Source: Longimicrobiales bacterium
Lineage (GTDB): Bacteria > Gemmatimonadota > Gemmatimonadetes > Longimicrobiales > Gaopeijiaceae
DNA: 64,000 nucleotides
Direction of reading: 5' to 3'
Assembly: GCA_965116905.1 (NCBI GenBank)
Contig: OZ220732.1
Location: 3,648,001 to 3,712,000, forward strand
The position numbers were made by a program, and so were the translations under genes. The number at the start of each line of letters is the position of its first letter. Position 1 is the stretch's first letter. This document shows positions 5,834 through 46,616 of the stretch, piece by piece. The notes under the pieces were generated by a model, which was not told where the DNA came from, did no database searches, and was given only the letters and a program-made list of their open reading frames with translations.

Positions 5834-7582
5834 ATGCCCAACCCGACGGACGAAGTCCTCATCGCTCGCTGGAAGGACGAACCGGCTCCCCTGCTGCCAC
5901 TGCTCCATGCCTTTCACGAGCGCGACGGGTACCTGTCGGAGCAAGCGCTGCGGGCGGTGTCGAAGGGGCTGCGCATCCCGCTGGCGGACCTCTTCGGGAC
6001 CGTCACCTTCTACCACCACTTTTCCCGGGTGGAGGGAGGAGCCGAAAGGCCCCGGGTGTGCGATGGACCGGTCTGCAGCATGCGCGGCTCCGATGTCCTG
6101 ATCGCCAGCCTCCGGGCCGCCGGACACGACCCGCACACGATGCCCTGCCCCGGCAGGTGCGACCAGCCGGTGCCGGTGATCCACGGACGAACGGTCCTGA
6201 CGGGCACGACCGCGGGCAGCCTGGTGACCGGGCCGTCGCCACTGCCGGCCCCCTCACCCGCAGGGGTCGAGGAATGCGTCTTCGCGGGGATCCGCGACGC
6301 CGGGCGCGCCACCCTGGACGGATACCGCGCGCAGGGCGGATACGAGGCACTGACGGGGGCGGTCACGGGAAAGACGCCCGACGAGGTGATCGGCATCGTG
6401 GACAACAGCGGCCTGGCCGGCCGCGGCGGCGCCTGCTTCCCGACCGGCCGGAAGTGGCGCGCGGTCGCCGAAGCCTCCGGCACGCCGAAGACGATCGTCT
6501 GCAACGCCGACGAAGGCGAGCCCGGCTGCTTCAAGGACCGCCTGCTCATGGATCACGACCCCCACGCGCTGGTCGAGGGGATGGCCATCGCGGCCTACGC
6601 GACGGGCGCGGAGCGCGGCTTCATCTACCTGCGCTACGAATACCCCGAGACGCTGGATATCCTGGAGGGCGCGATCGCGGAGGCGGTGGGGGCCGGCCTG
6701 ATCGGCGACGCAGTCCTGGGGACCGGCTTCTCGTTCGACCTTGTGGTGCGGCGCGGAGCCGGAGCCTACATCTGCGGCGAAGAGACATCCCTGCTCAATT
6801 CGCTGGAGGGCAAGCATCCGTTTCCCAGGAACCGCCCCCCCTTTCCCGTCACGCACGGCTACGAGGATCTTCCGACGGTCGTCAACAACGTGGAGACGCT
6901 GGCCTCGGTACCCCCCATTCTGTTGCGCGGCGCGGAGTGGTACCAGGACCTGGGACTCGGGGATCACGCGGGCACGAAGGTGATCAGCCTGTCGGGCGAC
7001 GTTGCGCGGCCGGGAAACTACGAAGTCCCCATCGGGCTGCCTCTCATGGAGCTGCTCGACGGCTGGGCAGGGGGACCTCTGCCGGGACGCTCCATCCAGG
7101 CCGTCACCATGGCGGGCCTGTCCGGGGGCTTTCTGGCGGGACCCGACCTGGACGTCACGCTCGACGAGCCCTCGATCCGGTCCCGGGGCAGCTTCCTGGG
7201 CGCGGGCGGGATCATGGTGTTCGACGACTCGCGCGACATGATCCGGGTCACCCGCGAATCGATGGAGTTCTTCGCCGAGGAGTCGTGCGGGAAGTGCTTT
7301 CCCTGCCGGATCGGCTGTCAGCGTCTGGTGGAGCGGCTGGACGGCGATGGACCGCGCACGGTGGACGCATGGGTGGACGAGGTGAGCGACCTGAACGAGG
7401 TCATGAAAAAGACGAGCGCGTGCGGACTTGGACAGGCCGCGCCCTTGCTTACGGAGAGCCTGATCCGTTATTTCCCGGACCGGATCCGCGCGCACGTGGG
7501 GGACCCGCAGGCCCATGGGGAAGCGCAGGCCCATGGGGACGCGCCAGGGCCCGCAGCGGGCGAGCGTCCAAGGAAGGGGTGA
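5834..7582 (+). CDS. NAD(H)-binding FDH subunit, fused NuoE-like [2Fe-2S] and NuoF-like FMN/[4Fe-4S] domains
   Basis: TFYHHF, CDGPVC and CPGRC (NuoE-like); GRGGACFPTG, NADEGEPG, GAGAYICGEE, ESCGKCFPCR and SACGLG (NuoF-like). Confidence 0.92.
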   Translation: MPNPTDEVLIARWKDEPAPLLPLLHAFHERDGYLSEQALRAVSKGLRIPLADLFGTVTFYHHFSRVEGGAERPRVCDGPVCSMRGSDVLIASLRAAGHDPHTMPCPGRCDQPVPVIHGRTVLTGTTAGSLVTGPSPLPAPSPAGVEECVFAGIRDAGRATLDGYRAQGGYEALTGAVTGKTPDEVIGIVDNSGLAGRGGACFPTGRKWRAVAEASGTPKTIVCNADEGEPGCFKDRLLMDHDPHALVEGMAIAAYATGAERGFIYLRYEYPETLDILEGAIAEAVGAGLIGDAVLGTGFSFDLVVRRGAGAYICGEETSLLNSLEGKHPFPRNRPPFPVTHGYEDLPTVVNNVETLASVPPILLRGAEWYQDLGLGDHAGTKVISLSGDVARPGNYEVPIGLPLMELLDGWAGGPLPGRSIQAVTMAGLSGGFLAGPDLDVTLDEPSIRSRGSFLGAGGIMVFDDSRDMIRVTRESMEFFAEESCGKCFPCRIGCQRLVERLDGDGPRTVDAWVDEVSDLNEVMKKTSACGLGQAAPLLTESLIRYFPDRIRAHVGDPQAHGEAQAHGDAPGPAAGERPRKG

Positions 7583-7586
7583 CACG

Positions 7587-10358
7587 ATGAGGCATAACGG
7601 CGCGGCGCTGACCCTGACCCTCGACGGGGAAAAGGTCGGCTTCACCCGGGGCGAGACGCTGTACGAGGTGGCCGAACGCCACGGCAGGGACATCCCGACG
7701 CTCTGCTACGATGCCCGGCTCGAGCCCTTCGGCGGCTGCCGCCTGTGCGTCGTCGAGCTGGAGGGGGCCCGCAACCCGGTGGCGTCCTGTACGACGCGGG
7801 CCGAGCCCGGCATGGTCGTGCGCACACGGACCGCGAGCATCGAAGTGCAGCGCCGCATCCTCATGGAGATGGTGGCCTCGGAGAACCGCGAAACCGACGT
7901 GGACCCGATGCACGGCTACGCATCGCAGGAAATGGCCGAGCTTCTCGACCGTTACGATGCCCGGACGGGCCGCTTCGCGGGCGCCACCTCGGGCACAAGC
8001 CGTCCGGACGACGACAACCCCTTCATCAAGCGGGACTACGAGAACTGCATCTCGTGCTACCGTTGCGTGCGGGTGTGCGAGGAGCAGGAGGGCGACTACG
8101 CGATCTCGGTGATGAATCGCGGCTTTCAGACCCAGATCACCACCGAATTCGGCGGCCTGCTGAAGGACTCGGCGTGCACCTTCTGCGGGCAGTGCATCCA
8201 GACGTGCCCCACGGGCGCGCTCGGAGACCTGAAGGCGCTCGCCAACCGGGACGTGCCCGGCGAGACCGAGACGACGCGCACGGTATGCCCGTACTGCGGG
8301 GTCGGTTGCTCTGTCGACGTGATGACGCGCGGCGAGAAGATCGTCGGCGTGCTGCCGGCAATGGACGGACCGGCCAATGAAGGCGCGTTGTGCGTCAAGG
8401 GCCAGTTCGCATTCGACTTCGTGCACCACCCCGACCGCCTTTCCACTCCCTTCGTGCGCGACGACGAGACCGGGGAACTCCGCCCGGCGTCGTGGGACGA
8501 AGCGCTGGACCGGGCCGCGGGGAAGCTGCGCAGGGTCGTGAAGGACCACGGTCGCCACGCCGTCTACGGAATCGCCTCCGGACGCGCGCCCCACGAGGCC
8601 GCCTACATGATGCAGCGCTTCATCAGGGCGGGATTGGGGACGAACCACATCGACAACTGCAGCCGTGCCTGACACGCCCCCACAGTCGCCGGTCTGGCGG
8701 CAACAATCGGAAGAGGGGCGATGTCGAACCCTCTCGCCGACATGGACAAGCCCGATGTGATCTTCTGCATCGGCACCAACATGACCGAGTGCCATCCCGT
8801 TGCCGCCACGCGGCTCAAGAGGGCGCTCGCGCGCGGCGCGAAGATGATCGTAGCGGACCCGCGCCGGATCGGGCTGGCCGAGATCGCCGATGTGCATCTT
8901 CCCATTCGCGTTGGCTCGGACGTGTCCCTGTTGCTGGCGATGGCGCACGTCATCGCCCGCGAGGGACTGGTGAACGAGGAGTTTGTCGGCGCGCGCACGG
9001 CCCACGGCGAGGACTTCCTGAAGCACGTGGAGGAGTACACCCCCGAGTGGGCGTCGGAGATCTGCGAGTGCGACCCGGATGACATCGAGCAGGCCGCGCT
9101 GCTGTACGGCGGGGCCGACCGGGGCGCCATCTACTACACCGTCGGGGTCACCGAGCACATCTGCGGCGTCGACAACGTGCAGAGCCTCTGCAACCTGGCC
9201 CTGATGACCGGCAACCTGGGCCGCGAGGGCACGGGGGTGAACCCCATGCGCGGGCAGAACAACATCCAGGGCGCCGGCGACGCGGGCGCGCTCCCGAACA
9301 ACTATCCCGGCTTCCAGACCGTCACCGATCCAGCTCACCAGGAGAAGTTCCACCAGGCGTACGGGCGCAAGGTCGACCTCGAGACGGGCATGACCAAGGT
9401 CACCGCGCTGGACCTGTGCGGCGACGGCATCCACGCGATGATCATCGACGGCGAGAACACCCTCGTCACCGACCCGGACCGCCACCACTGCGAGCACGCG
9501 CTCAAGAGCCTGGACTGCCTGGTCGTGATCGACATCTTCATGACCGAGACGGCCAAGGTGGCCGATGTGGTGTTCCCGGCCACGGCGTGGGCCGAAACCG
9601 ACGGCGTCTGCACCAACACGGAGCGTCGCGTGCAGCGGTTGCGCGCGGCGGTGCCGCCGCCAGGCGAAGCGAAGCCCGACTGGTGGATCCTGTCGCGCCT
9701 TGCCCGGCGGATGGGCTGGAAGGGCTTCGATTTCGGGTCCGCCAAGGAAGTCTTCAACGAGCTCTGCGCCCTCTCACCCCTCTACAACGGCCTCGACTGG
9801 GACCGGATCGACCGGGGCGAGTATCAGTGGCCGGTGCCCACGCACGATCACCCCGGCACGCCGCGCCTGCACGAGGAGCGCTTCGAAAACGGGCGCGGGA
9901 TCTTCAAGATGCTCGAGTACCGCGACCCCGAAGAGACCCTTTCGGACGACTATCCCATGTGGCTCACGACCGGCCGGCGGCTGCCCCAGTACCACACGCG
10001 GACGCAGACCGGACGCTCGGACGGGATCGACTACCTGCTGTCCGAGGAGACGCTGGAGGTGCACCCCGACGACATCGTGCGCCTCGGGCTGGAGGACGGG
10101 GGCTACGCGGAGTTGAGCAATCCCCGGGGCTGCGTCCATGTGAAGATCCGCGCGACCACCAAGTCGCCGAAGGGGACCGTGTTCGCGTCGTTCGCCTTCG
10201 AGGACGTGCCCGTCAACGTGCTGACCGGCGGCGGCTACGATCCGGTGACGCAGACGGCCGCGCTCAAGGCGTGTCCCGTGGCGCTGAAGCCGGTGGGCCC
10301 GCCGCCCGCGCTCCGCCAGGCGGCCGCCGGGCCGGAAACCGCCGCACCGGCCTGGTAG
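7587..10358 (+). CDS. fdhF: Selenocysteine-containing formate dehydrogenase alpha subunit (about 923 aa, Sec at codon 362)
   Basis: ORFs 7515..8672 and 8721..10358 are in the same frame, separated only by TGA 8670-8672 in the context DNCSRA-U-HAPTVAGL, the Mo/W-ligand position. N-terminal Fe-S motifs, CPYCGVGC and RGQNNIQG are present. Confidence 0.95.
8670..8720 (+). promoter_or_regulatory. SECIS element of FDH alpha
   Basis: After the TGA: stem GTCGCC (8685-8690), loop GGTCT, stem GGCGGC (8696-8701); possible lower stem CGCCCC/GGGGCG. Resembles the E. coli fdhF SECIS arrangement. Confidence 0.85.
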
Positions 10359-30806: not shown

Positions 30807-33089
30807 TCAGACGCCCCCGGCGAGCCGCCAGAACTGAGCCACAAGGAAGCAGACCACAAACCCCATGGCCAGCGGCAACAGCGCGGACAGCGCCGTCCAG
30901 CGGCCGCTCTTCGTTTCCTTGTAGATCGTGTAGATGGTCGTGGAGCAGGGGTTATGCAGCAGGCTGAACAGCATGAGGTTCACGCCGGTCAGCAACGTCC
31001 AGCCACCCGCGCTCAGCAGTCCCGCCATGTCGCCGGCGGAGTCCCTCTCGAACATCACGCCGGCCCCCTCGCCAAGCTCGGGTGTGCCCAGCATCAGGAC
31101 GGTGAGCATCAGGATGGTCGGGATCACGATCTCGTTGGCCGGGATCGCGATGATGTAGGCGAGCAGGATCACCCCGTTGAGCCCGAGCAGCACGCCGAAG
31201 GGGTCCATGCCGTTGATCGCGTGTTCGGCCAGTGAGGCGCCGCCGACGGAGATGTTCGAAATCAGCCAGATCACCGCACCCGCGGGGACCGCAAAGAGGA
31301 CCGCGCGCCAGAGGATGATCAGGGTGCGGTCGATGATCGAGGTGTACAGCGTCTGCAGGACCCGGGGCGGGCGGTAGGGCGGCAGTTCGAGCGAGAAGGT
31401 CGTCGCCTCGCCCTTCAGCACGGTGTTGGAGAGGCCCCACGACGTGATGAACATGAAGAAGATCCCCAGCAGGGCGATCGTGACGACGGCGCCGGCGGAG
31501 ACGAAGCCCGCAAGGTGCGGCGGCACGAGCGCGCCGATGAAGATCGTCGCGATCAGGATCTGGGTCGGCCAGCGCCCGTTGCACAGCGAGAAGTTGTTGG
31601 TGATCACGGCGATCAGGCGCTCCCTGGGGCTGTCGATCACGCGCGTGGCGACGACCCCGGCCGCGTTGCAGCCGAAGCCCATGCTCATGGTCAGCGCCTG
31701 CTTGCCGTGGGCGCCTGCACGCCTGAAGAGCGAGTCCAGGTTGAAGGCGACGCGCGGCAGGTAGCCGAAGTCCTCCAGCAGGGTGAATAGCGGGAAGAAG
31801 ATGGCCATGGGCGGCAGCATGACGCTCACCACCCAGGCCGTCGCCCGGTACACCCCATCGAAGAGAAAGCCGCTGAGCCACCAGGGCATTCGGGCCCACT
31901 CGCCGAAGCCCATCAGAACGGGGTGCAGGGTGTCGATCAGAAGCGTGGCGAGCATCGCCGAGGGGACATTCGCGCCGGCGATCGTCAGCCAGAAGACGAC
32001 GGCCAGGATGCCCAGCATGAGCGGGAAGCCGAATACACGGCTGGTAAGCCAGCGATCCAGGCGACGGTCCAGGCCCGCACCCGCCTTCTTGAGTCCCCGA
32101 TGCACGCTCGCCTCGCCGATCCGGGCGGCTTCCCGGTAGAGGTTCTCCGCCACTGCATCCTGAAAGCCGGGACGCAAGGTCCAGCGCTGACGGGTGGCGG
32201 CATCCAGGATTCGCGCCCTCGCCGCGGTCGCCTCCGATGGCGACGCGGGGGCCGGATCGTCCTGCCGCGCCCCCTCGCCCGCGGCGGGACCAGGGGTTTC
32301 CGGGGCCGCATCCCGGTTGAGATCGCCGATCTCGCCGGAGCGCACGGCTTCGGCGACCCGCTCATCGGCGTTCAGCAGCCGGAGCGCCACCCACTTCGCG
32401 TTGGGAAGCTCCGGAAACGCCTCCACGATCAGGGGCTTGAGGGCGTCGACCGCATCCTCCACGCCGGCCGGGTGCGACCGCAGGCGGCGGGGCGCGGTCT
32501 TGCGTGCGCCCGTGGCGACTTCGTATGCCATGCGCAACAGCGCGTCGATCCCTTCCCCCTGACGGGCCACCGTCGGCACCACCGGCACACCGAGTTCCCT
32601 TTCCAGGCGCGCCGGATCCACGGAGACGCCGTGCCGCCGGGCCTCGTCGACCAGATTGAGGCAGACGACCACCCGATCGGTGATCTCGAGGATCTGCAGC
32701 ACCAGGTTGAGGTTGCGCTCCAGGCGCATGGCATCCACCACCACGACGGTCACATCCGGCTGCCCGAACAGGATGAAGTCGCGCGCGACCTCCTCGTCGA
32801 CGCTGCCGGCCTGGAGGGAATAGGTGCCGGGCAGGTCCACAACCTTGACCCGGCTGCCGTCGTACAGAAACGCGCCCTCGGCCCGGGTCACGGTCTTCCC
32901 GGGCCAGTTGCCGGTATGCTGCCGGAGCCCGGTCAGCGCGTTGAACACCGTGGTCTTGCCGACATTGGGATTGCCGGCCAGCGCGATCAGGTGATCCCAC
33001 TTGTGGGGACTCAGGCCAAGACGGACCAGGTTGCGGTTGCGCTGCGGTCCCGGCCCATGACACGCCGCGGCTGCGGTTTGCGCGGTCAT
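30807..33089 (-). CDS. feoB: Ferrous iron/manganese transporter FeoB
   Basis: GTPase motifs [23 protein letters not shown]; gate motifs GFGCN and NPC; ELPPYR. Confidence 0.95.
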
Positions 33090-34117
33090 GCCGCATCCTC
33101 CGGCCAGTCGCCGTTGACATGGATCATGGCGGCCTGTTCACGGCGCAGGGCAATCAGCGCGCCCCGGATGTCGTACGCGACCGGATCGCCGCCCGCGCTG
33201 CGCATCCGGGGCCGCACGACCGTGCCCGGGACGACCCCGAGGTCGAGGAGGCGCCTGCGGGCCGGACCACGACACCGGGTCGAGATCCCGACCACGGTGG
33301 CCGAGTCGCCCGGCTCGATCTCGGCCAGCGTCCGGGACCATCGCGGACCGGCCACGTCCTCCGCGATCTCGACCGTAACGTTGCGGGCCAGCGCGCTGGA
33401 CACCTCGTACTGCCGGTCGCCGGTCTGGAAATGGACCCTCCCCGCCTCGCCTTCCAACCGCCGCACGGGCTCCATCAGTCCGAGCCCCAACGCGACAAGC
33501 TGACCGTAGATCTCGGGGGGCTCGTCCTCGAGGTGAACGATGACGGCCTGGTCCCCCGGTCTGAGAGAGGACAGCGGCACCCCCGACCGGGCGGGGATTT
33601 CGCCCGACGCCGTGGGAATCGGATCGCCGTGCGGGTCGTAGACGGGATTCCCCAGCGACGCGGCCAGGTCCTCGGTCTCCTCCTCCGACAGCGTGTGCTC
33701 GCGCGTTTCGGCCTGTTCATGCCACTCCTCGGGACGCGTTCCCGTCCTGTCCGCCAGGAAGCGCTCCCACAGGCGGTGGGTGCGAACGATCCGCAGGGCC
33801 TGTCCGCGGCCGGACTCGGTGAGGCTGAACCGGTTCCCGCTTGCGGTCACCAGACCCTCTTCCTCGAGCCGCTGGAGCAGCCGGATGGCCTGGCTTCGCG
33901 GGATCTGGACGCCGCCGGCCACGCTGTCCGCGGTGGCGGGATGCCGGTCGTACTCCAGCTTGTGAAGCTGCTTGAGCATGTCTTCCAGCCGCACACGCTC
34001 GGTCAGGCGAGCCAGTCGCCGCACCCGTGCGACGACGCCGGACCCGGGCCACAGGACGACGCACCCGAGCGCGGCCAGGCCCGCAAAGACGGCGAGGGCG
34101 AGAATCGGTTCGGGCAT
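33086..34117 (-). CDS. DtxR/MntR-family metal-dependent regulator with N-terminal TM helix and two FeoA domains
   Basis: EDMLK, w[28 protein letters not shown]; two FeoA-like repeats ([18 protein letters not shown]...ALRREQA). Confidence 0.9.
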
Positions 34118-34176
34118 GGGAATCGGGGACCGGGCGGTAGGCTGCACGTTGCGTGTTGGTGTGGAATCGCCCGAAA

Positions 34177-41600: not shown

Positions 41601-41968
41601 CCGACGCTGCGCTGGCTGGTGTTCTCGCCGGTCCCGAGCCAGATCACGTTCGAATCGGTGGGATCGATGGCGATGGAGCCGGTGGAGTAGGACGGATAGT
41701 CGTCGAAGATGGGCGTCCAGGTCGTGCCGCGGTTCTCGGTCTTCCACACGTTCGACGAGGAGGTCGCGACGTACCAGACGCTCCGGTTGGAGGGGTCGAC
41801 CGCCACGTCCGCGATCCGGCCGGACATGAAGGCCGGTCCGATGCCGCGGAGTTCTAGGGCGGAGAGGAGGGCCTCGTCGACGGCGGGGGATTGGGCGTGG
41901 AGCGGGGCTAAGGTGGTGCAGAGGGCGGCCGCGAGGGTGAGGGTGGTGGTGGTGGTGAAGCGACTCAT
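38636..41968 (-). CDS. VPS10/BNR-repeat glycosyl hydrolase-like exported protein
   Basis: Signal peptide; IGPAFMSGRI; many Asp-box repeats (SxDGGxTW); C-terminal coiled coil. Confidence 0.88.
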   Translation of the reverse strand: MSRFTTTTTLTLAAALCTTLAPLHAQSPAVDEALLSALELRGIGPAFMSGRIADVAVDPSNRSVWYVATSSSNVWKTENRGTTWTPIFDDYPSYSTGSIAIDPTDSNVIWLGTGENTSQRSVGWGDGVYKSLDGGRSWTNTGLGTSEHIGQILIDPRDPDVVYAAAMGGLWAPGGDRGLFKTTDGGATWTPVLEISENTGIADVHLDPRDPDVLYAVAFQRRRHVGVLVAGGPESGVWKSTDGGETWRDITSGLPAGDLGRIALAVSPIDPDVLYANAAATEDRSGFYRSPDRGETWVRMSDYIVVDPQYYGELYPDPHRMDRVYAVDVIIHVTNDGGRTFDQVNTRFKHVDNHEIVFDPDDPDYMLVGSDGGLYETFDGTRTWRYVSGNMPLMQFYRVGIDNMSPFYTVYGGTQDNSSVGGPSRTDNVHGIRNSDWFITHGGDGFQARVDPDDPNIVYTQSQYAGIVRYDRASGEELDIQPQPEAGEGALRWHWDSPLIISPHNSRRIYFAAQKLFRSDDRAETWTAVSGDLSRGLDRNQRPVMGRIWPPEAVWKNVFTSPYGTIVALDESPLAEGLLYVGTDDGLVQVSEDGGGGWRRQEAFPGVPARAYVADVVASRHMADRVYAVFNNHKEGDFTPYVARSDDRGASWTNITGDVPDGQSTWTLMEDHVDPDLLFLGTEFGLFVTRDGGTSWVRLRGGLPTIAVRDLEIQRREDDLVLATFGRGFYILDDYSPLREMDEAVAGAASEPGAAGDAGAAGPSAAARVSVAAHFFPVKDPWAYIPARPLGGQQKGTFGDAFFTAPNPPFGAVFTYYLRDGYESLKEQRQRLEREALARGEDIAYPDQATLTAEDMERPPEVFVVVSDAAGDVVRRVPAPGRAGLHRIAWDLRYASLQPPSPGGGEADGPMVAPGEFSARVVLVTGDGHEDLTAPRSFTVKPLGTATLAAADRDALLAFQREVAELQRAAVAVDRAARETSERLTLLRRAVRAAPGMDAAPYETRITAFEARLFEIRRVLSRDRTALDRAEFAPPSVMQRVSRVVGAQFRATSAPTTTQRDSYAVASAQLAEMSEALRALVEGDLAALEAEMEAAGVPWTPGRPIPRWPG

Positions 41969-42190
41969 GCGTGGCCTCGGTTTCGGTTGCGGCTGGATTC
42001 GGCGCGTTCAGCTAGCAGGATGCTTCCGGTGGCACGCCCCCGCAATCACCGCCGAACCGGCACCCTACCGCGTCTTCGCCTCGCCGATGTTGTTTCGCGC
42101 CAACGAGAGCGCGCGTCCCGGGGGTCAGGGGGCTGACGCTGGACGGTGCGGGCGGTCCGGCGCTCGGCGTCGGCAACCACACGCGCTTAA

Positions 42191-42207
42191 CTGGCACTCC
42201 TCGTGCG
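42191..42207 (+). promoter_or_regulatory. Possible sigma54 -24/-12 promoter
   Basis: CTGGCAC-TCCTC-GTGC fits GG-N10-GC; no annotated plus-strand gene follows directly. Confidence 0.35.
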
Positions 42208-42351
42208 CATATCTCTATAAGTTACTGTTTGGTAGTAATTTACAATGTGCGCACAAATGCCGCCGCGACGATCATATTGCCGTCCAACTGACAAAGACAC
42301 TGAAGGGGTCGTCTCGCCCTTACTGGACTGATGCGATCGCGAACCCCGCAA

Positions 42352-43083
42352 TCATCCCAGCTCCCAGAACTCCCCGCTCAACCCCGCGTCCCGCAGCAGC
42401 GCCTGCCTGGCCCGGGCCGAATACGGCCGCCATGCGTCGTCGAGCCGCCCCGCGTACCAGTCGTGGCTCAACTCGCCCAGCACCTCGACCGGGACGATGG
42501 CGCCGGGATCCCCGCCCCGCCCCCGCTCCCACGCTCTCGCATCCGCTTCCGACCGGAAGGCCACGATGTTGCGTCAGGTGAAGCCGATGTCGTCCCAGAA
42601 GTCGCGCACGGGCACGGCCAGGCGGACAACGGCTCCGCGAGGCCCGGCCCGGCCACGCGTCATGGTCAGGTCGAAACGCGTGCCCGACTGGGGACAGCTG
42701 GCGCGCGTCCGGCCATCGGTGTCGAGAAGCAGGGGAATCGCCAGCGCGTCCCAGGCGCAGTTCGCCCAATACGCGGCGGCAGGCGTCTCGACCCGGTACG
42801 GCGTGGGCACAGCCGAGAACGGGTGGGCCATCCAGACTTCGCCGCGTCGATCCAGCGCCAGCACGCGGGCGTCGGCGAGGAAGCGAAGGGCCCCCTCGAT
42901 CCCGGTTTCGGCCGCGCCAGTTTCGACTGCGCCAGTTCCGGCCGCGCCGGTTTCGGCCGCGCCGAGGTCGGCGGCAAGCTCGGCGGCGAGTTCGGCGCGC
43001 GATGGCACCGTCCCGGTGTCCCGGATCCGGCGGTAGAGGTGGCCGCGCAGGCGCCAGGCGAAGGCTTCGGCGGGCGCGGTCAT
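42352..43083 (-). CDS. merB: MerB-like organometallic (alkylmercury) lyase selenoprotein (about 243 aa, Sec at codon 170)
   Basis: AHPFSAVPTPYRV, WANCAWDAL (MerB Cys96/Asp99 equivalent), SCPQSG, then FWDDIGFT-TGA-RNIVAFRSEADARAW in frame with ORF 42352..42564. The TGA (42574-42576) sits at the position equivalent to the second catalytic Cys. Confidence 0.82.
42537..42576 (-). promoter_or_regulatory. Putative SECIS element of the MerB-like gene
   Basis: Minus strand: TGA CGCAACATCGTGGC CTTCC GGTC GGAAG CGGATGCG. Upper stem CTTCC/GGAAG with GGTC loop 20 nt after the TGA; lower CATC/GATG pairing. Confidence 0.7.
42902..42961. repeat. In-frame 15-bp tandem repeat x4 in the MerB-like gene
   Basis: CCGGTTTCGGCCGCG / CCAGTTTCGACTGCG / CCAGTTCCGGCCGCG / CCGGTTTCGGCCGCG, encoding AAETG-AAGTG-AVETG-AAETG. 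Confidence 0.9.
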
Positions 43084-43517
43084 GGGTTCGGCGACGCCGT
43101 CCGGCGTCTCCAGTCCAGCCATGCATCCAGGCTCAGGCGGTCCTCTTCGAACAGGGCCAGCACCACGATCAGCAGCAGGACGCGCGGGATGACGTGGGTG
43201 TGGAACGCGTACAGCGGCTCGGCCAGGAGATGCCCGAAGGTGACGAGCATGAGGACGCATCCCAGCCCGACCGCCGCCGCGAAGCGCTTCCAGCCGGTCA
43301 GCATGAGGGCGCCGCCGATCAGTTCGACGTAGGGGACCACGACGCCGGTAAACCAGAGCGACCACTCGGGCAGCGGGCCCGAGGCGTAGGGCTCCACGAA
43401 GAGGCTCCTGGCATGCTCGACCGCGCCGAGCTGGAACACCTTCCAGAAACCGGCGGCGAAGAAGATGAGGCCCAGGATCACCCGTGCCACGAACACGGCC
43501 CAACACTTCGGTGTCAT
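43080..43517 (-). CDS. DoxX-family membrane protein
   Basis: RVILGLIFFAAGFWK, PYVELIGGALMLTG, SLDAW; its stop overlaps the MerB-like start (ATGA). Confidence 0.85.
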   Translation of the reverse strand: MTPKCWAVFVARVILGLIFFAAGFWKVFQLGAVEHARSLFVEPYASGPLPEWSLWFTGVVVPYVELIGGALMLTGWKRFAAAVGLGCVLMLVTFGHLLAEPLYAFHTHVIPRVLLLIVVLALFEEDRLSLDAWLDWRRRTASPNP

Positions 43518-43622
43518 CGTCTGTCCTCTCCCAACCGGGCCCGCCGAAACCTCGTCGGTGGCCGCTCCGTAGTAACCGATTCACGCAGGTGGACAACCTT
43601 CACTCTCGATACACGGCGAGCA

Positions 43623-43688
43623 ATGAGACCGACGACCCACAAGGCCAGGGACCGCGTCGCATCCGCGACCAGGGGGAGAGCGCCATAG
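43623..43688 (+). CDS. Putative leader peptide MRPTTHKARDRVASATRGRAP
   Basis: 21-codon uORF ending 30 nt before a terminator hairpin in the ABC transporter leader; RBS is weak. Confidence 0.45.
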   Translation: MRPTTHKARDRVASATRGRAP

Positions 43689-43718
43689 AACGGTAGCCAG
43701 GACGTTCATCGGGACCGC

Positions 43719-43765
43719 ATCGGCCCTCAGGCGCTCGCATCGCCAGGGGGCCGATTTCTTTTTTT
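43719..43765 (+). terminator. Intrinsic terminator (attenuator) directly upstream of the ABC transporter
   Basis: Stem ATCGGCCCTC/GGGGGCCGAT with inner GGCG/CGCC, followed by TTCTTTTTTT, ending 18 nt before ATG 43784. Confidence 0.85.
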
Positions 43766-43783
43766 GGGGAGCCAGCAGAACAC

Positions 43784-46117
43784 ATGTCACACCTGACACA
43801 AGACCTGAGAATCATCGAGCGCTACACGGATCAGCCGGCGCGCATGCCCGCCGAGCTGCGGCGGCGCATCGAGGACCGCTGGGACGGGGAACCCGTGCAG
43901 CTCTACGCGATGGCCGACCTGGACGAGGCCATGACGCTCACCGAGCGGTGGTTCGCCGTGGGACCCTCGCGTGGGGCAACCGCGACCCGGCGCAGCGACG
44001 GCTCATGGAGGATCGACTCCTTCGAGCGCCGCGATGTGGAGGGCGTCCGGGAGATACCCGGCCTGAGCAGCACGGTCCTCCTGGTCCTGGGCCCCGCGGG
44101 TGAGCGGCCCCTGGCGAGCCTGCGCTACACGCATCGCCAGCGGCGCGCGATGGAGAATCTGCGCTTCGTGCTGGAACACGGGATCGCGCCGGCGGCCGCC
44201 GTGCTCAGCGCGGATGGCGAGGACGGCGCGGAGCTCGATGGCGAGGACGCCAGGTCACTCGCCGACGCGGACCTCGAGTACGAACGAGGCGTGGCCGGCC
44301 CCGTGCGGGAGGCGCAGGCCCTGGTGGGCGGTACGCGCAGGGCGGTTCTGTGGAGGCTGCTCAGCTACCTGGGGCCATACAAGACCCGGATGCTGGCCGG
44401 TTTCGCCGCGGCCGCCCTCATCACCGGGGTGAGCCTCGTGCCGCCCTTCCTGGCGGGCTACCTGATCGACGAGGTCGTCCGGCCCGCCCGTGACGGGTCG
44501 CTCGCGATGGCCGACGCTCTGCGGACGGCGTGGATCGCGGTCGCCGCCATGGCCCTGCTGTACCTGGTGCGGGAGGGGGCGGCCCACGTCCGCCTGAAGC
44601 AGATGAGCGTGCTCGGAGAATTCGTGGCGCGGGACCTGCGCACCGAACTGTACGAGCACCTGCAGCGTCTGAGTCTGAGCTTCTATGCCCGGAAGAAGAC
44701 GGGCGGCCTCATCACCCGGGTGAGCTCGGACACGGACCGGCTGTGGGAGTTTCTGGCGTTCGGGATCGTGGACGTATCGCTGTCGGCGGTGATGCTCGCG
44801 GGGCTGAGCGCTGTGCTGCTCAACCTGGACTGGCGGCTGGGGCTCGTCATGATCCTTCCGGTGCCTCTGCTGTGCTGGTCGATCTTCCGGCACGGCGAGC
44901 GCATCCACCGCCTGTTCGCGCGGGCGTGGCGGAAGTGGTCGGGCCTTACGGACATCCTGTCGGACACGATCCCCGGGATGCGCGTCGTGAAGGCGTTCAA
45001 CCAGGAGGACCGCGAGAAGCAGCGCTTCAACGCCAGCAACGACGCCGCGATGGGCGAGTTCAACCGCATCCACCGCGTCTGGACCTTCTTCTGGCCGGCG
45101 CTGATGCTGGGTGTGCACGTCATGACCATGGCCGTGTGGGCGCTGGCGGTTCCGCGGCTCCTCGGTACACCGGGAAGCTCCGGCAACCTCACCCCGGGCA
45201 CGTTCGTCTCGTTCCTCCTGTACATGACGATGTACGTGCAGCCCATCGAGGTCATCGGCCAGATGGCCAGGGTGATGAACCGGGCGACGAGTTCCGCCCA
45301 CCGCGTCTTCGAGGTGCTGGACACCGAACCGGAGGTGCGGGACAGGGCGCGCCCCGTGCGGCTGGAACCGGTCCGCGGGGCCGTGGAGTTCGACTCGGTG
45401 ACCTTCGGCTACGACGGCGTCAAGCAGGTGGTGAAGGGCGTGTCCTTCTCGGTCCAACCCGGCGAGATGATCGGACTCGTAGGGCCGTCGGGCGGCGGAA
45501 AGACGACCGTCACCAACCTCATCGCGCGCTTCTACGACGCCACGGGCGGGCGCGTGCTGATCGACGACACCGACGTTCGCACACTCGACACGGGCCACTA
45601 TCGGCGCCAGATCGGGATCGTGCTGCAGGACCCGTACCTGTTCCACGGCTCCATCCTCGAAAACATCCGCTACGGCGACCCGGAGGCGTCGCTCGACGCG
45701 GTGGTGGAGGCGTCGCGGGCGGCCAATGCGCACGACTTCATCTGCCGGCTGCCGCTGGGCTACGACACGGTTGTCGGGGAACGCGGGCAGACGCTGTCCG
45801 GGGGTGAGCGCCAGCGCGTGTCGATCGCCCGCGCGATCCTCCACGACCCGCGGATCCTGATTCTGGACGAGGCGACGTCGGCCGTCGACACCGAGACCGA
45901 GCGCAAGATCCAGGAGGCCATCGACCGGCTGGTTTCCGGCAGGACCGTGTTTGCCATCGCGCACCGGCTGTCCACGCTGGCGCGCGCGAACCGGATCTTT
46001 GTCATGAAGAACGGCTACCTCGTCGAGGCGGGTACCCAGGGAGAGCTGTTGGCGATCGAGAACGGCGTCTACCGGAGGCTTTACGAGTTGCAGATCGAAA
46101 TACGAAAGGACGATTGA
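43784..46117 (+). CDS. ABC exporter (fused TMD and NBD) with extra N-terminal domain, DUF1854-associated type
   Basis: Walker A GPSGGGKT, LSGGERQR, ILDEATS, IAHRLST; about 180-aa soluble N-terminal extension. Confidence 0.92.
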   Translation: MSHLTQDLRIIERYTDQPARMPAELRRRIEDRWDGEPVQLYAMADLDEAMTLTERWFAVGPSRGATATRRSDGSWRIDSFERRDVEGVREIPGLSSTVLLVLGPAGERPLASLRYTHRQRRAMENLRFVLEHGIAPAAAVLSADGEDGAELDGEDARSLADADLEYERGVAGPVREAQALVGGTRRAVLWRLLSYLGPYKTRMLAGFAAAALITGVSLVPPFLAGYLIDEVVRPARDGSLAMADALRTAWIAVAAMALLYLVREGAAHVRLKQMSVLGEFVARDLRTELYEHLQRLSLSFYARKKTGGLITRVSSDTDRLWEFLAFGIVDVSLSAVMLAGLSAVLLNLDWRLGLVMILPVPLLCWSIFRHGERIHRLFARAWRKWSGLTDILSDTIPGMRVVKAFNQEDREKQRFNASNDAAMGEFNRIHRVWTFFWPALMLGVHVMTMAVWALAVPRLLGTPGSSGNLTPGTFVSFLLYMTMYVQPIEVIGQMARVMNRATSSAHRVFEVLDTEPEVRDRARPVRLEPVRGAVEFDSVTFGYDGVKQVVKGVSFSVQPGEMIGLVGPSGGGKTTVTNLIARFYDATGGRVLIDDTDVRTLDTGHYRRQIGIVLQDPYLFHGSILENIRYGDPEASLDAVVEASRAANAHDFICRLPLGYDTVVGERGQTLSGGERQRVSIARAILHDPRILILDEATSAVDTETERKIQEAIDRLVSGRTVFAIAHRLSTLARANRIFVMKNGYLVEAGTQGELLAIENGVYRRLYELQIEIRKDD

Positions 46118-46118
46118 A

Positions 46119-46616
46119 GTGAACGACGCGAGAATGCAGAAGGGGACTTCAGACCGAGGCGCGGTCGTGCTCCGTTGGGGACCCGACGGCCAGCTGTGGG
46201 CCGAAACCGGGGGACGCCGCGCCCCCGTAGTGGTTCACCGGTGCTTTCCGTGGTCCGATCCGGCCCGGCACATCTCCCTGCGGGATCATGACGAGGAGGA
46301 GTTCGCCTACGTCCCCGACGTGTCGGAGCTGGAGGAGGAGTCGCGCGCGGCGCTGAAACGTGCGCTTGTCGCGGCCGGGTTCCTCCTGGAGATTACCGCG
46401 GTCGAAGACGTTACCGAGGAGGTTGAGATCCGGAACTGGGCAGTCCGAACACGCCAGGGATCGCGCCGGTTCCAGACACGGCTGGACGACTGGCCGGTCC
46501 GGATCGCCGGCGGGGGCCTGCTGATCCGCGACCTGGCCGGAGACCTCTATCACGTCCCCGATCCGGAGGCGCTGGATCCGGCCAGCCGCAAATGGCTCTG
46601 GGCGTACGCGGGGTAA
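46119..46616 (+). CDS. DUF1854 domain protein
   Basis: RCFPWSDP, WAVRTRQG, LLIRDLAGDLYHVPDPEALDPASR; follows the ABC exporter. Confidence 0.8.
   Translation: MNDARMQKGTSDRGAVVLRWGPDGQLWAETGGRRAPVVVHRCFPWSDPARHISLRDHDEEEFAYVPDVSELEEESRAALKRALVAAGFLLEITAVEDVTEEVEIRNWAVRTRQGSRRFQTRLDDWPVRIAGGGLLIRDLAGDLYHVPDPEALDPASRKWLWAYAG

Follow-up and report, generated by a model that had tools for sequence, protein, structure and literature searches.

The DNA analysed here, hereafter the window, is a stretch of 64,000 nucleotides from a Longimicrobiales bacterium (Gemmatimonadota; GenBank assembly GCA_965116905.1, contig OZ220732.1, positions 3,648,001 to 3,712,000 of the forward strand). We are concerned with a minus-strand gene at 42352..43083, which encodes a predicted MerB-fold protein of 243 amino acids if its single in-frame TGA is read as selenocysteine (Sec, U). 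The frame runs from an ATG at 43083 through the TGA at 42576-42574 (residue 170) to a stop at 42354-42352. Translation table 11 breaks it into two open reading frames (ORFs), and a GTG at 42564 opens a 70-amino-acid ORF downstream of the TGA. An earlier reading made from the letters of this stretch (the sequence-only reading) had joined the two ORFs into one interrupted frame and had seen in them a hidden MerB-like selenoprotein outside any mer operon; both points are supported by the present analysis. The motifs on which it relied are all present in the 243-residue read-through product, with NCAWD at residues 108-112, CP at residues 130-131 and the TGA lying in FT-U-RNIVAFRS. The gene is an intact member of an apparently uncatalogued selenoprotein subfamily of the MerB fold, for which the selenoprotein SaoL set the precedent.

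The protein would consist of an N-terminal winged helix, the MerB catalytic domain and a family-specific C-terminal extension (W-Y-x-x-R ... L-x-G-x-F-W). When read through, it matches the MerB family PF03243 with an E-value of 1.3e-25 and 90.2 bits (cut-off 27) over model positions 1-125 of 126; the portion before the TGA reaches model positions 1-79 only. The closest relatives of the gene are 79-84% identical and are labelled mostly Gemmatimonadota or Longimicrobiales. Close relatives have 224 amino acids, and the window copy is longer through in-frame tandem repeats of 15 and 12 bp (42902..42997, minus strand), by which its winged-helix domain gains some 19 residues of low complexity.

The TGA is conserved. 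We kept 80 of 113 genome loci and 80 of 539 metagenome loci, and among the 79 genome loci that cover the column 78 have TGA and one has TGC, while the 80 metagenome loci have 79 TGA and one TAG (L181). Pooled, this makes 157 of 159 loci, a fraction which describes the Sec-form subfamily, from which the search patterns were taken, and not the whole family. Beyond the TGA, 71-90 further codons can be read without a stop in 76 of 78 genome loci (of the other two, one leaves its contig and one continues into a GNAT domain), and the protein part that this downstream frame encodes has invariant W, L, F and W residues. A Sec-form gene whose frame extends into a GNAT acetyltransferase domain lies at L066:4881-6053.

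Databases, in turn, stop at the TGA. Exactly this codon ends 117 of the 120 listed protein homologues, including the window's own called protein; database calls are 150-182 amino acids long, and GenBank names such shortened products 'organomercurial lyase'. That standard pipelines would call a truncated gene had been foreseen in the sequence-only reading, and this is borne out by GenBank products of 150-163 amino acids under that name. The same reading had placed the TGA at the second catalytic Cys of MerB, and it does align with MerB Cys159. When 1.84 billion representatives were searched with a profile, 363 matched at E <= 1e-30, and in the best 150 of these the column is Cys in 70, Trp in two and another residue in five; 66 end just before it, their codon not being seen, and seven do not cover it. 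The full-length representatives P0124 and P0134 (cluster of 8) have Trp at the Sec column, as a change from TGA to TGG or another gene-calling code would give, their DNA not being seen.

The database calls, the GTG start, the TAG at L181 and the two Trp representatives are what could be expected if the TGA were a true stop, leaving a truncated or split MerB relic, or were reassigned to Trp or Gly. We consider this extremely unlikely in view of the near-universal TGA and the open, conserved frame behind it; moreover, of seven neighbouring genes checked, six use TGA as their stop, and the genome has a tRNA-Sec with a TCA anticodon.

The TGA is followed by a hairpin that resembles a selenocysteine insertion sequence (SECIS). 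Its upper stem-loop, CUUCC-GGUC-GGAAG, lies at 42546..42559 (minus strand), +15..+28 after the TGA, and also codes for F-R-S-E. As the sequence-only reading had observed, the position of the GGUC loop (+20..+23) is close to that of the formate dehydrogenase gene in the same window, where GGUC stands at +19..+22 after the TGA at 8670-8672. Codon choice over the stem is nearly frozen. Counted over 78 TGA sequences, which are related so that the counts are not independent, Arg+7 is encoded by CGG or AGG in 76 of 77 (484/1208 as background from the same genes), Ser+8 is TCG in 72 of 74 (background 228/636) and Glu+9 is GAA in 53 of 75 (background 275/799); upstream residues of equal conservation use mixed codons. 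Of 143 distinct segments drawn from the 157 loci, 94-100% preserve any given one of the five stem pairs, 129 have GGUC as the loop, and four carry a compensatory change of C-G to A-U by way of two synonymous changes. FRSE is present in 60 of the 72 rows of a mostly Sec alignment compared with five of 70 Cys-form representatives, which suggests that the RNA imposes the peptide. Judged by these patterns, the hairpin is under selection as RNA.

Folding energy was also tried as proof of a SECIS and was dropped, since it is no better than in shuffled sequences.

The genome encodes what Sec insertion would need. A search for selA, selB, selC and selD had been proposed as a check, and all four were found, as SelA, SelB, SelD and the tRNA-Sec mentioned above. 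Among 48 distant genomes tested, of ungiven completeness, there are 47 TGA carriers; SelA is strongly matched in 45 of these, and in the remaining two SelB is present. The carrier of the TGC homologue (locus L078, genome G041) has no SelA, SelB wing domain or tRNA-Sec above cut-off, and the hairpin codons of its gene have decayed. In a sample of 201 genomes of the phylum, the Sec form is carried by 23, all of them with SelA or SelB; five carrier genomes scored borderline for the SelB wing domain and fell short of the threshold used (E 1e-8), and all five have SelA. Members of the subfamily occur further in genomes labelled Acidobacteriota, Chloroflexota, Myxococcota and Gammaproteobacteria, in addition to Gemmatimonadota.

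Some results limit what can be drawn from the hairpin or the Sec machinery taken alone. The folding energy of the hairpin is no better than that of shuffles (z +0.1 to +1.5), and a loose rule of a TGA followed by a GGT loop matches 360 sites in the genome and cannot single out selenoproteins. SelB is present in at least 153 of the 201 phylum genomes (a tally that includes G203, flagged unpublished), and a Cys-form genome, G185, has SelB as well; with SelB so common, the co-occurrence test is weak when taken alone. It is thus the conservation of the TGA together with the frozen hairpin codons, and not the hairpin alone, that gives the Sec reading its significance. The sequence-only reading had named three outcomes that would speak against it, namely a non-Cys residue or TAA/TAG at this column in homologues, an unconserved downstream frame, and a genome without Sec machinery, and none of these is what we found. 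The gene combines a UGA paired with Cys in homologues, a frame conserved on both sides of it, a SECIS-like hairpin and a genome with selA, selB, selC and selD, and by these sequence criteria it qualifies as a bacterial selenoprotein gene. Almost certainly, then, SelB would bind the hairpin, Sec would be inserted and the full-length protein would be made. The Sec content of the protein is far more certain than its activity.

Further selenoprotein genes were noted on the way. The SelD gene at G000:C1:641772-642698 is itself a selenoprotein gene (G-U-A-C-K), with a strong hairpin after its in-frame TGA. The alpha subunit of the formate dehydrogenase (window 7515-10355, plus strand; TGA 8670-8672) has Sec in the context CSRA-U-HAP and a hairpin with a GGUCU loop; the motif search missed this Sec site and the family search detected it. 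The formate dehydrogenase cluster also holds a NuoEF-like subunit, fdhD, mobAB and a formate-tetrahydrofolate ligase. A group of 17 tRNA genes lies on one strand within 2 kb at G000:C1:1296478-1298432.

The protein has the fold of MerB. An AlphaFold2 model of the read-through product, built on a 72-row alignment (69 Sec and three Cys rows), has a mean predicted local distance difference test (pLDDT) score of 94.4, with lower confidence at residues 41-60 in the repeat region. Foldseek returned 11 matches to this model at E <= 0.001, every one of them MerB or MerB2. A VIA structural search of 48,161 chains gave MerB2 (5c17; Z 17.3, root-mean-square deviation (rmsd) 3.6, 190 residues aligned) and MerB (3f2g; Z 14.2, rmsd 4.3, 184 aligned), the next row having Z 7.9. 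The protein belongs to the MerB superfamily (PF03243), by a Pfam score above cut-off and by its fold.

The signature of MerB is Cys96, Asp99, Cys117 and Cys159 (PMC8261052, in excerpt). Aligned to solved MerB and MerB2, these positions correspond to Cys109, Asp112, Cys130 and residue 170 of the window protein. Cys109 and Asp112 stand in the C-A-W-D motif (42748..42759, minus strand), and the C-x-x-D pattern is kept in 72 of 72 rows of the alignment, as is the Thr that precedes the Sec site. Cys130, in the C-P motif (42691..42696, minus strand) and aligned with the structural Cys117, is Cys in 53 of the 72 rows. The C-terminal extension runs past the MerB-aligned region, which ends at residue 215-219 of 243.

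Directly upstream, and also on the minus strand, lies a gene for a DoxX-family membrane protein of 145 amino acids (43080..43517; Pfam DoxX score 28.5 bits against a cut-off of 23.6). Its ORF, 43517-43080, overlaps the start of the Sec gene by ATGA, as had been seen before, and it has the Shine-Dalgarno-like sequence GGAGAGGA, while none stands before the ATG of the Sec gene. From the overlap the sequence-only reading had built a two-gene module of DoxX and a Sec lyase. In such a module the two proteins would be translationally coupled and DoxX would supply or remove substrate or electrons at the membrane, an idea for which one may also cite the 13 of 80 genome loci with direct adjacency and a locus labelled Acidobacteria (L036) that keeps an abutting pair without six other syntenic marker genes. 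We regard it as very unlikely, since the linkage dissolves with distance. doxX is found in 23 of the 80 genome loci, all among the 32 closest: adjacent in 13, separated by inserts of 1.1-2.6 kb in eight, 4 kb downstream in L019 and reduced to a remnant in L009. A doxX hidden Markov model (HMM) search of the 48 distant genome loci, of which 45 have at least 1.5 kb of upstream sequence, was negative, and the four of 80 metagenome loci with doxX are the four closest. In the phylum sample doxX occurs in 22 genomes and the Sec gene in 23, but both occur in only five and are adjacent in two, so that the Sec gene is missing from 17 of the 22 genomes with doxX, and this doxX from 18 of the 23 with the Sec gene. 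In close relatives the whole 10-kb region is syntenic, with genes for an ABC transporter, threonine aldolase and a VPS10 protein as syntenic as doxX, and an alignment of 23 DoxX rows has no invariant Cys. The adjacent doxX is likely a local neighbour, present in close relatives only, and not a partner. The proposed module is therefore not supported; of the claim that this is an undescribed system, the protein family, apparently uncatalogued, stands, and the gene pair is not what is new.

Nor does another neighbour recur. Clustering of 4564 neighbourhood ORFs gave lineage-bound synteny only, with no neighbour recurring across lineages, and Pfam, applied to 65 of the 102 neighbours chosen (a set without repeat members of one family and without some others), brought out no function that recurs. 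An Rfam scan of 41900-43900 gave no meaningful match, and a scan for promoters and terminators gave none of either. A run recorded as a sponge metatranscriptome contains relatives of the region; its contigs cover intergenic DNA and the divergent gene at equal depth, and hence it shows neither transcription nor co-transcription. Divergent from doxX, an ABC transporter and DUF1854 pair (43784-46616, plus strand) is present in many close relatives; its best matches are the cyanophycin-associated models NF052233 and NF052234, both under cut-off. At 30810-34147 (minus strand), 8 kb from the Sec gene, a FeoB gene lies behind a DtxR/MntR-type regulator with FeoA domains.

No mer system accompanies the gene. 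The sequence-only reading had found no merA, merR or merT in the window, which holds; in the genome (97% complete, one contig) there is no MerA above cut-off (best 372 of 454 bits) and a search for MerT found none, and its three MerR-type genes all lie outside the window. The best matches to the MerA model are, by inspection, a dihydrolipoamide dehydrogenase and a flavoprotein, both without the C-terminal Cys pair that is the hallmark of MerA. Among 69 carrier genomes, with 19 candidates scored in each, MerA is above cut-off in four. About half of the genomes with merB have no merA (PMC8261052, in excerpt).

In MerB, R-Hg is bound by the thiolates of two Cys and its carbon takes a proton from Asp99, and Hg(II) is transferred to MerA (PMC10114901, in excerpt). 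As the first Cys and the Asp are kept in all 72 rows, our choice for the most likely activity is protonolytic cleavage of a bond between carbon and a metal(loid). The proposal, whose chances we judge to be even, is that the protein could be a stand-alone lyase that breaks the carbon-metal bond of an organometal or organometalloid substrate without DoxX or a mer operon. By analogy with MerB, Cys109 and Sec170 would clamp the soft metal(loid) and weaken its bond to carbon, and Asp112 would deliver a proton and so free the hydrocarbon. A selenol is mostly ionised at neutral pH, and for this reason the proton would come from water and not from residue 170. More tentatively, the usual substrate would not be handed to MerA, because MerA is rare in carrier genomes; the metal might stay bound or go to cellular thiols.

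A number of observations count against a lyase. Identity to solved MerB is just 18-24%, Asn precedes the catalytic Cys where MerB has Trp, and the MerB models of NCBIfam release 20.0 score far under their cut-offs (NF009710 42.5 of 193 bits, NF033555 36.4 of 200). Among 70 Cys sister forms, 29 have C-x-x-C and 31 have C-x-x-D, and the wider family need not be a lyase. The only metal-related products among the 65 distant-locus neighbour ORFs are a chromate transporter, a cation-efflux protein and a ferritin-like protein. Genomes with MerB alone are known to pose a problem of turnover in the absence of MerA (PMC8261052, in excerpt).

The scarcity of MerA, found in just four of the 69 carrier genomes and not in the window genome, would also suit a protein that binds or sequesters a soft metal (Hg, Cu, Ag or Cd) or an organometal without turnover, as a scavenger or a sensor domain. 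Cys-form relatives are fused to LuxR-type DNA-binding domains in five of 21 long proteins scanned, the D99S variant of MerB binds Cu(II) via two cysteines (PMC10114901, in excerpt), and mercury is bound very tightly by selenium (Haft and Gwadz, bioRxiv 10.1101/2022.07.06.499078, in excerpt). We nevertheless hold this to be unlikely, as a pure binder would have no need of the proton-donor Asp that all 72 rows retain, LuxR fusions were seen with Cys forms and not with Sec forms, and there is no metal transporter among the conserved neighbours. Distinctly unlikely, in our view, is a reuse of the MerB fold as a thiol/selenol redox catalyst acting on peroxides, disulfides or electrophiles through Cys109-Sec170 selenenylsulfide cycling. 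Redox roles are expected for most bacterial selenoproteins that have yet to be characterised (PMC13188914, in excerpt), C-x-x-C is frequent among the Cys sister forms, some of which are fused to GNAT, glyoxalase or PhzF domains, and the Sec gene is scattered without metal genes. However, the protein has no thioredoxin fold and its sole strong structural matches are MerB, Asp112 is retained in the Sec forms, and no reductase or thioredoxin is found among the conserved neighbours. We thus favour the stand-alone lyase.

The analysis adds an apparently uncatalogued and widespread bacterial selenoprotein subfamily, present in 23 of the 201 phylum genomes and in several other phyla. Mercury-demethylation surveys retain only MerB proteins with Cys96, Asp99 and Cys159 (PMC8261052, PMC12484752, both in excerpt). 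Since this filter demands Cys159 and the Sec genes are called short of that residue, they would be dropped. If the proteins are active lyases, demethylation potential has been undercounted; if they are not, the GenBank label 'organomercurial lyase' is wrong. We may speculate further, though we find it rather doubtful, that soil, sediment and marine bacteria possess a second, separate and far more widespread Sec-containing MerB-fold family that cleaves carbon-metal bonds without MerA. It would be a pathway for degrading methylmercury or other organometal(loid)s, lost from every merB survey because the called protein ends before Cys159. Near-identical Sec and Cys forms, such as the TGC copy that is nested in Sec copies, offer a natural pair for examining the role of selenium at a metal-binding catalytic site; the same pair bears on the role of MerB-like proteins in genomes without MerA (PMC8261052, in excerpt).

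Compared with MerB (PF03243; NF033555, NF009710; PDB 1s6l, 3f0o, 5c17), the window protein has the same fold and the four signature positions map onto it, but Sec replaces Cys159, sequence identity is low as given above, a C-terminal extension is present, and there is no merA, merT or adjacent merR. It lies outside canonical MerB on three counts, namely a TGA at Cys159 (the other three signature positions match), both MerB model scores and the mer context.

The Cys-form proteins annotated 'alkylmercury lyase family' (for example HET9796281.1 and L199) are of equal length, have T-C at the column and share the C-terminal extension; they differ from the Sec forms in that FRSE is not frozen and the C-x-x-D/C motif is variable. 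We found no functional study of these relatives. L199 (NC_003296.1, ~1415.3-1416.0 kb) is a Cys form with C-x-x-C on Ralstonia solanacearum-complex megaplasmids (98 records), mostly annotated hypothetical. Plasmid searches with two Cys forms returned mostly Ralstonia megaplasmids, and none of the 70 rows listed bears a mer label. P0108, P0136, P0171, P0183 and P0200 join a MerB-like domain of the subfamily to a C-terminal LuxR-type DNA-binding domain and are candidate metal or organometal sensors; the Cys forms P0144 and P0167 carry an N-terminal GNAT domain. P0382 (320 amino acids) has a MerB-like domain fused to an N-terminal part that matches, under cut-off, the DF-family (seleno)protein model NF049942.

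Full-text searches, whose scope did not extend to Haft and Tolstoy 2025, supplements or subscription papers, met SaoL as the sole MerB-like selenoprotein. Table 1 of PMC13188914 has in the part available one MerB-like entry, which is SaoL with C-U, and PMC9312934, likewise in excerpt, gives the same SaoL accession. 'MerB' is absent from the main text of PMC2398784 and from that of deep-Sep (PMC12013277), the supplement of the latter having two C-U representatives. A T-U MerB-like family was not met in the covered parts of BSepDB (PMC13326102), outside which its family table lies. True SaoL was sought through a SaoL-like protein, and of the 16 matches scanned 15 scored 82-112 bits and one 49.5 on the SaoL model, all below the cut-off of 140. 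L111 and P0298-P0381 form a possible Cys sister group of SaoL; these MerB-like proteins are full-length, most have a C-C motif, and on this model they reach 82-112 bits.

SaoL (NF040728) is the closest parallel. It shares with the window protein the MerB fold, Sec at the Cys159 column and retention of the first Cys and the Asp, and it too is shortened in databases at its UGA, is found outside mer operons and has a putative function (bioRxiv 10.1101/2022.07.06.499078, in excerpt). The two differ in their motifs (C-U and M-C-A-V-D in SaoL, T-U and N-C-A-W-D here) and in the number of residues after Sec (about 50 in SaoL, 73 here). SaoL belongs to a nine-gene operon of anaerobes, according to the part of its description available, whereas the subfamily of the window protein has no conserved neighbours. 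Among the NCBIfam matches of four scanned neighbours there was no Sao model, other Sao models not having been searched genome-wide. On the SaoL HMM the window protein scores 24.5 bits against the cut-off of 140, and three distant Sec members score about 38-48 (37.6-47.8). By its score, its T-U motif and the absent SAO neighbourhood, the predicted protein is not SaoL. A quick, unrooted IQ-TREE tree of 92 proteins, which includes no true SaoL and has two MerB rows on long branches, puts 74 Sec, Cys and Trp forms together on one side of a branch with SH-aLRT 99, MerB lying outside it, and sets nine SaoL-like proteins apart from these (SH-aLRT 97). The Sec and Cys forms interleave, with seven changes of which at least two are forced by strong branches, and the TGC copy is nested within a Chloroflexota Sec group (SH-aLRT 99). 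Taken together, the comparison suggests that Sec at the MerB site arose in the subfamily described here independently of SaoL.

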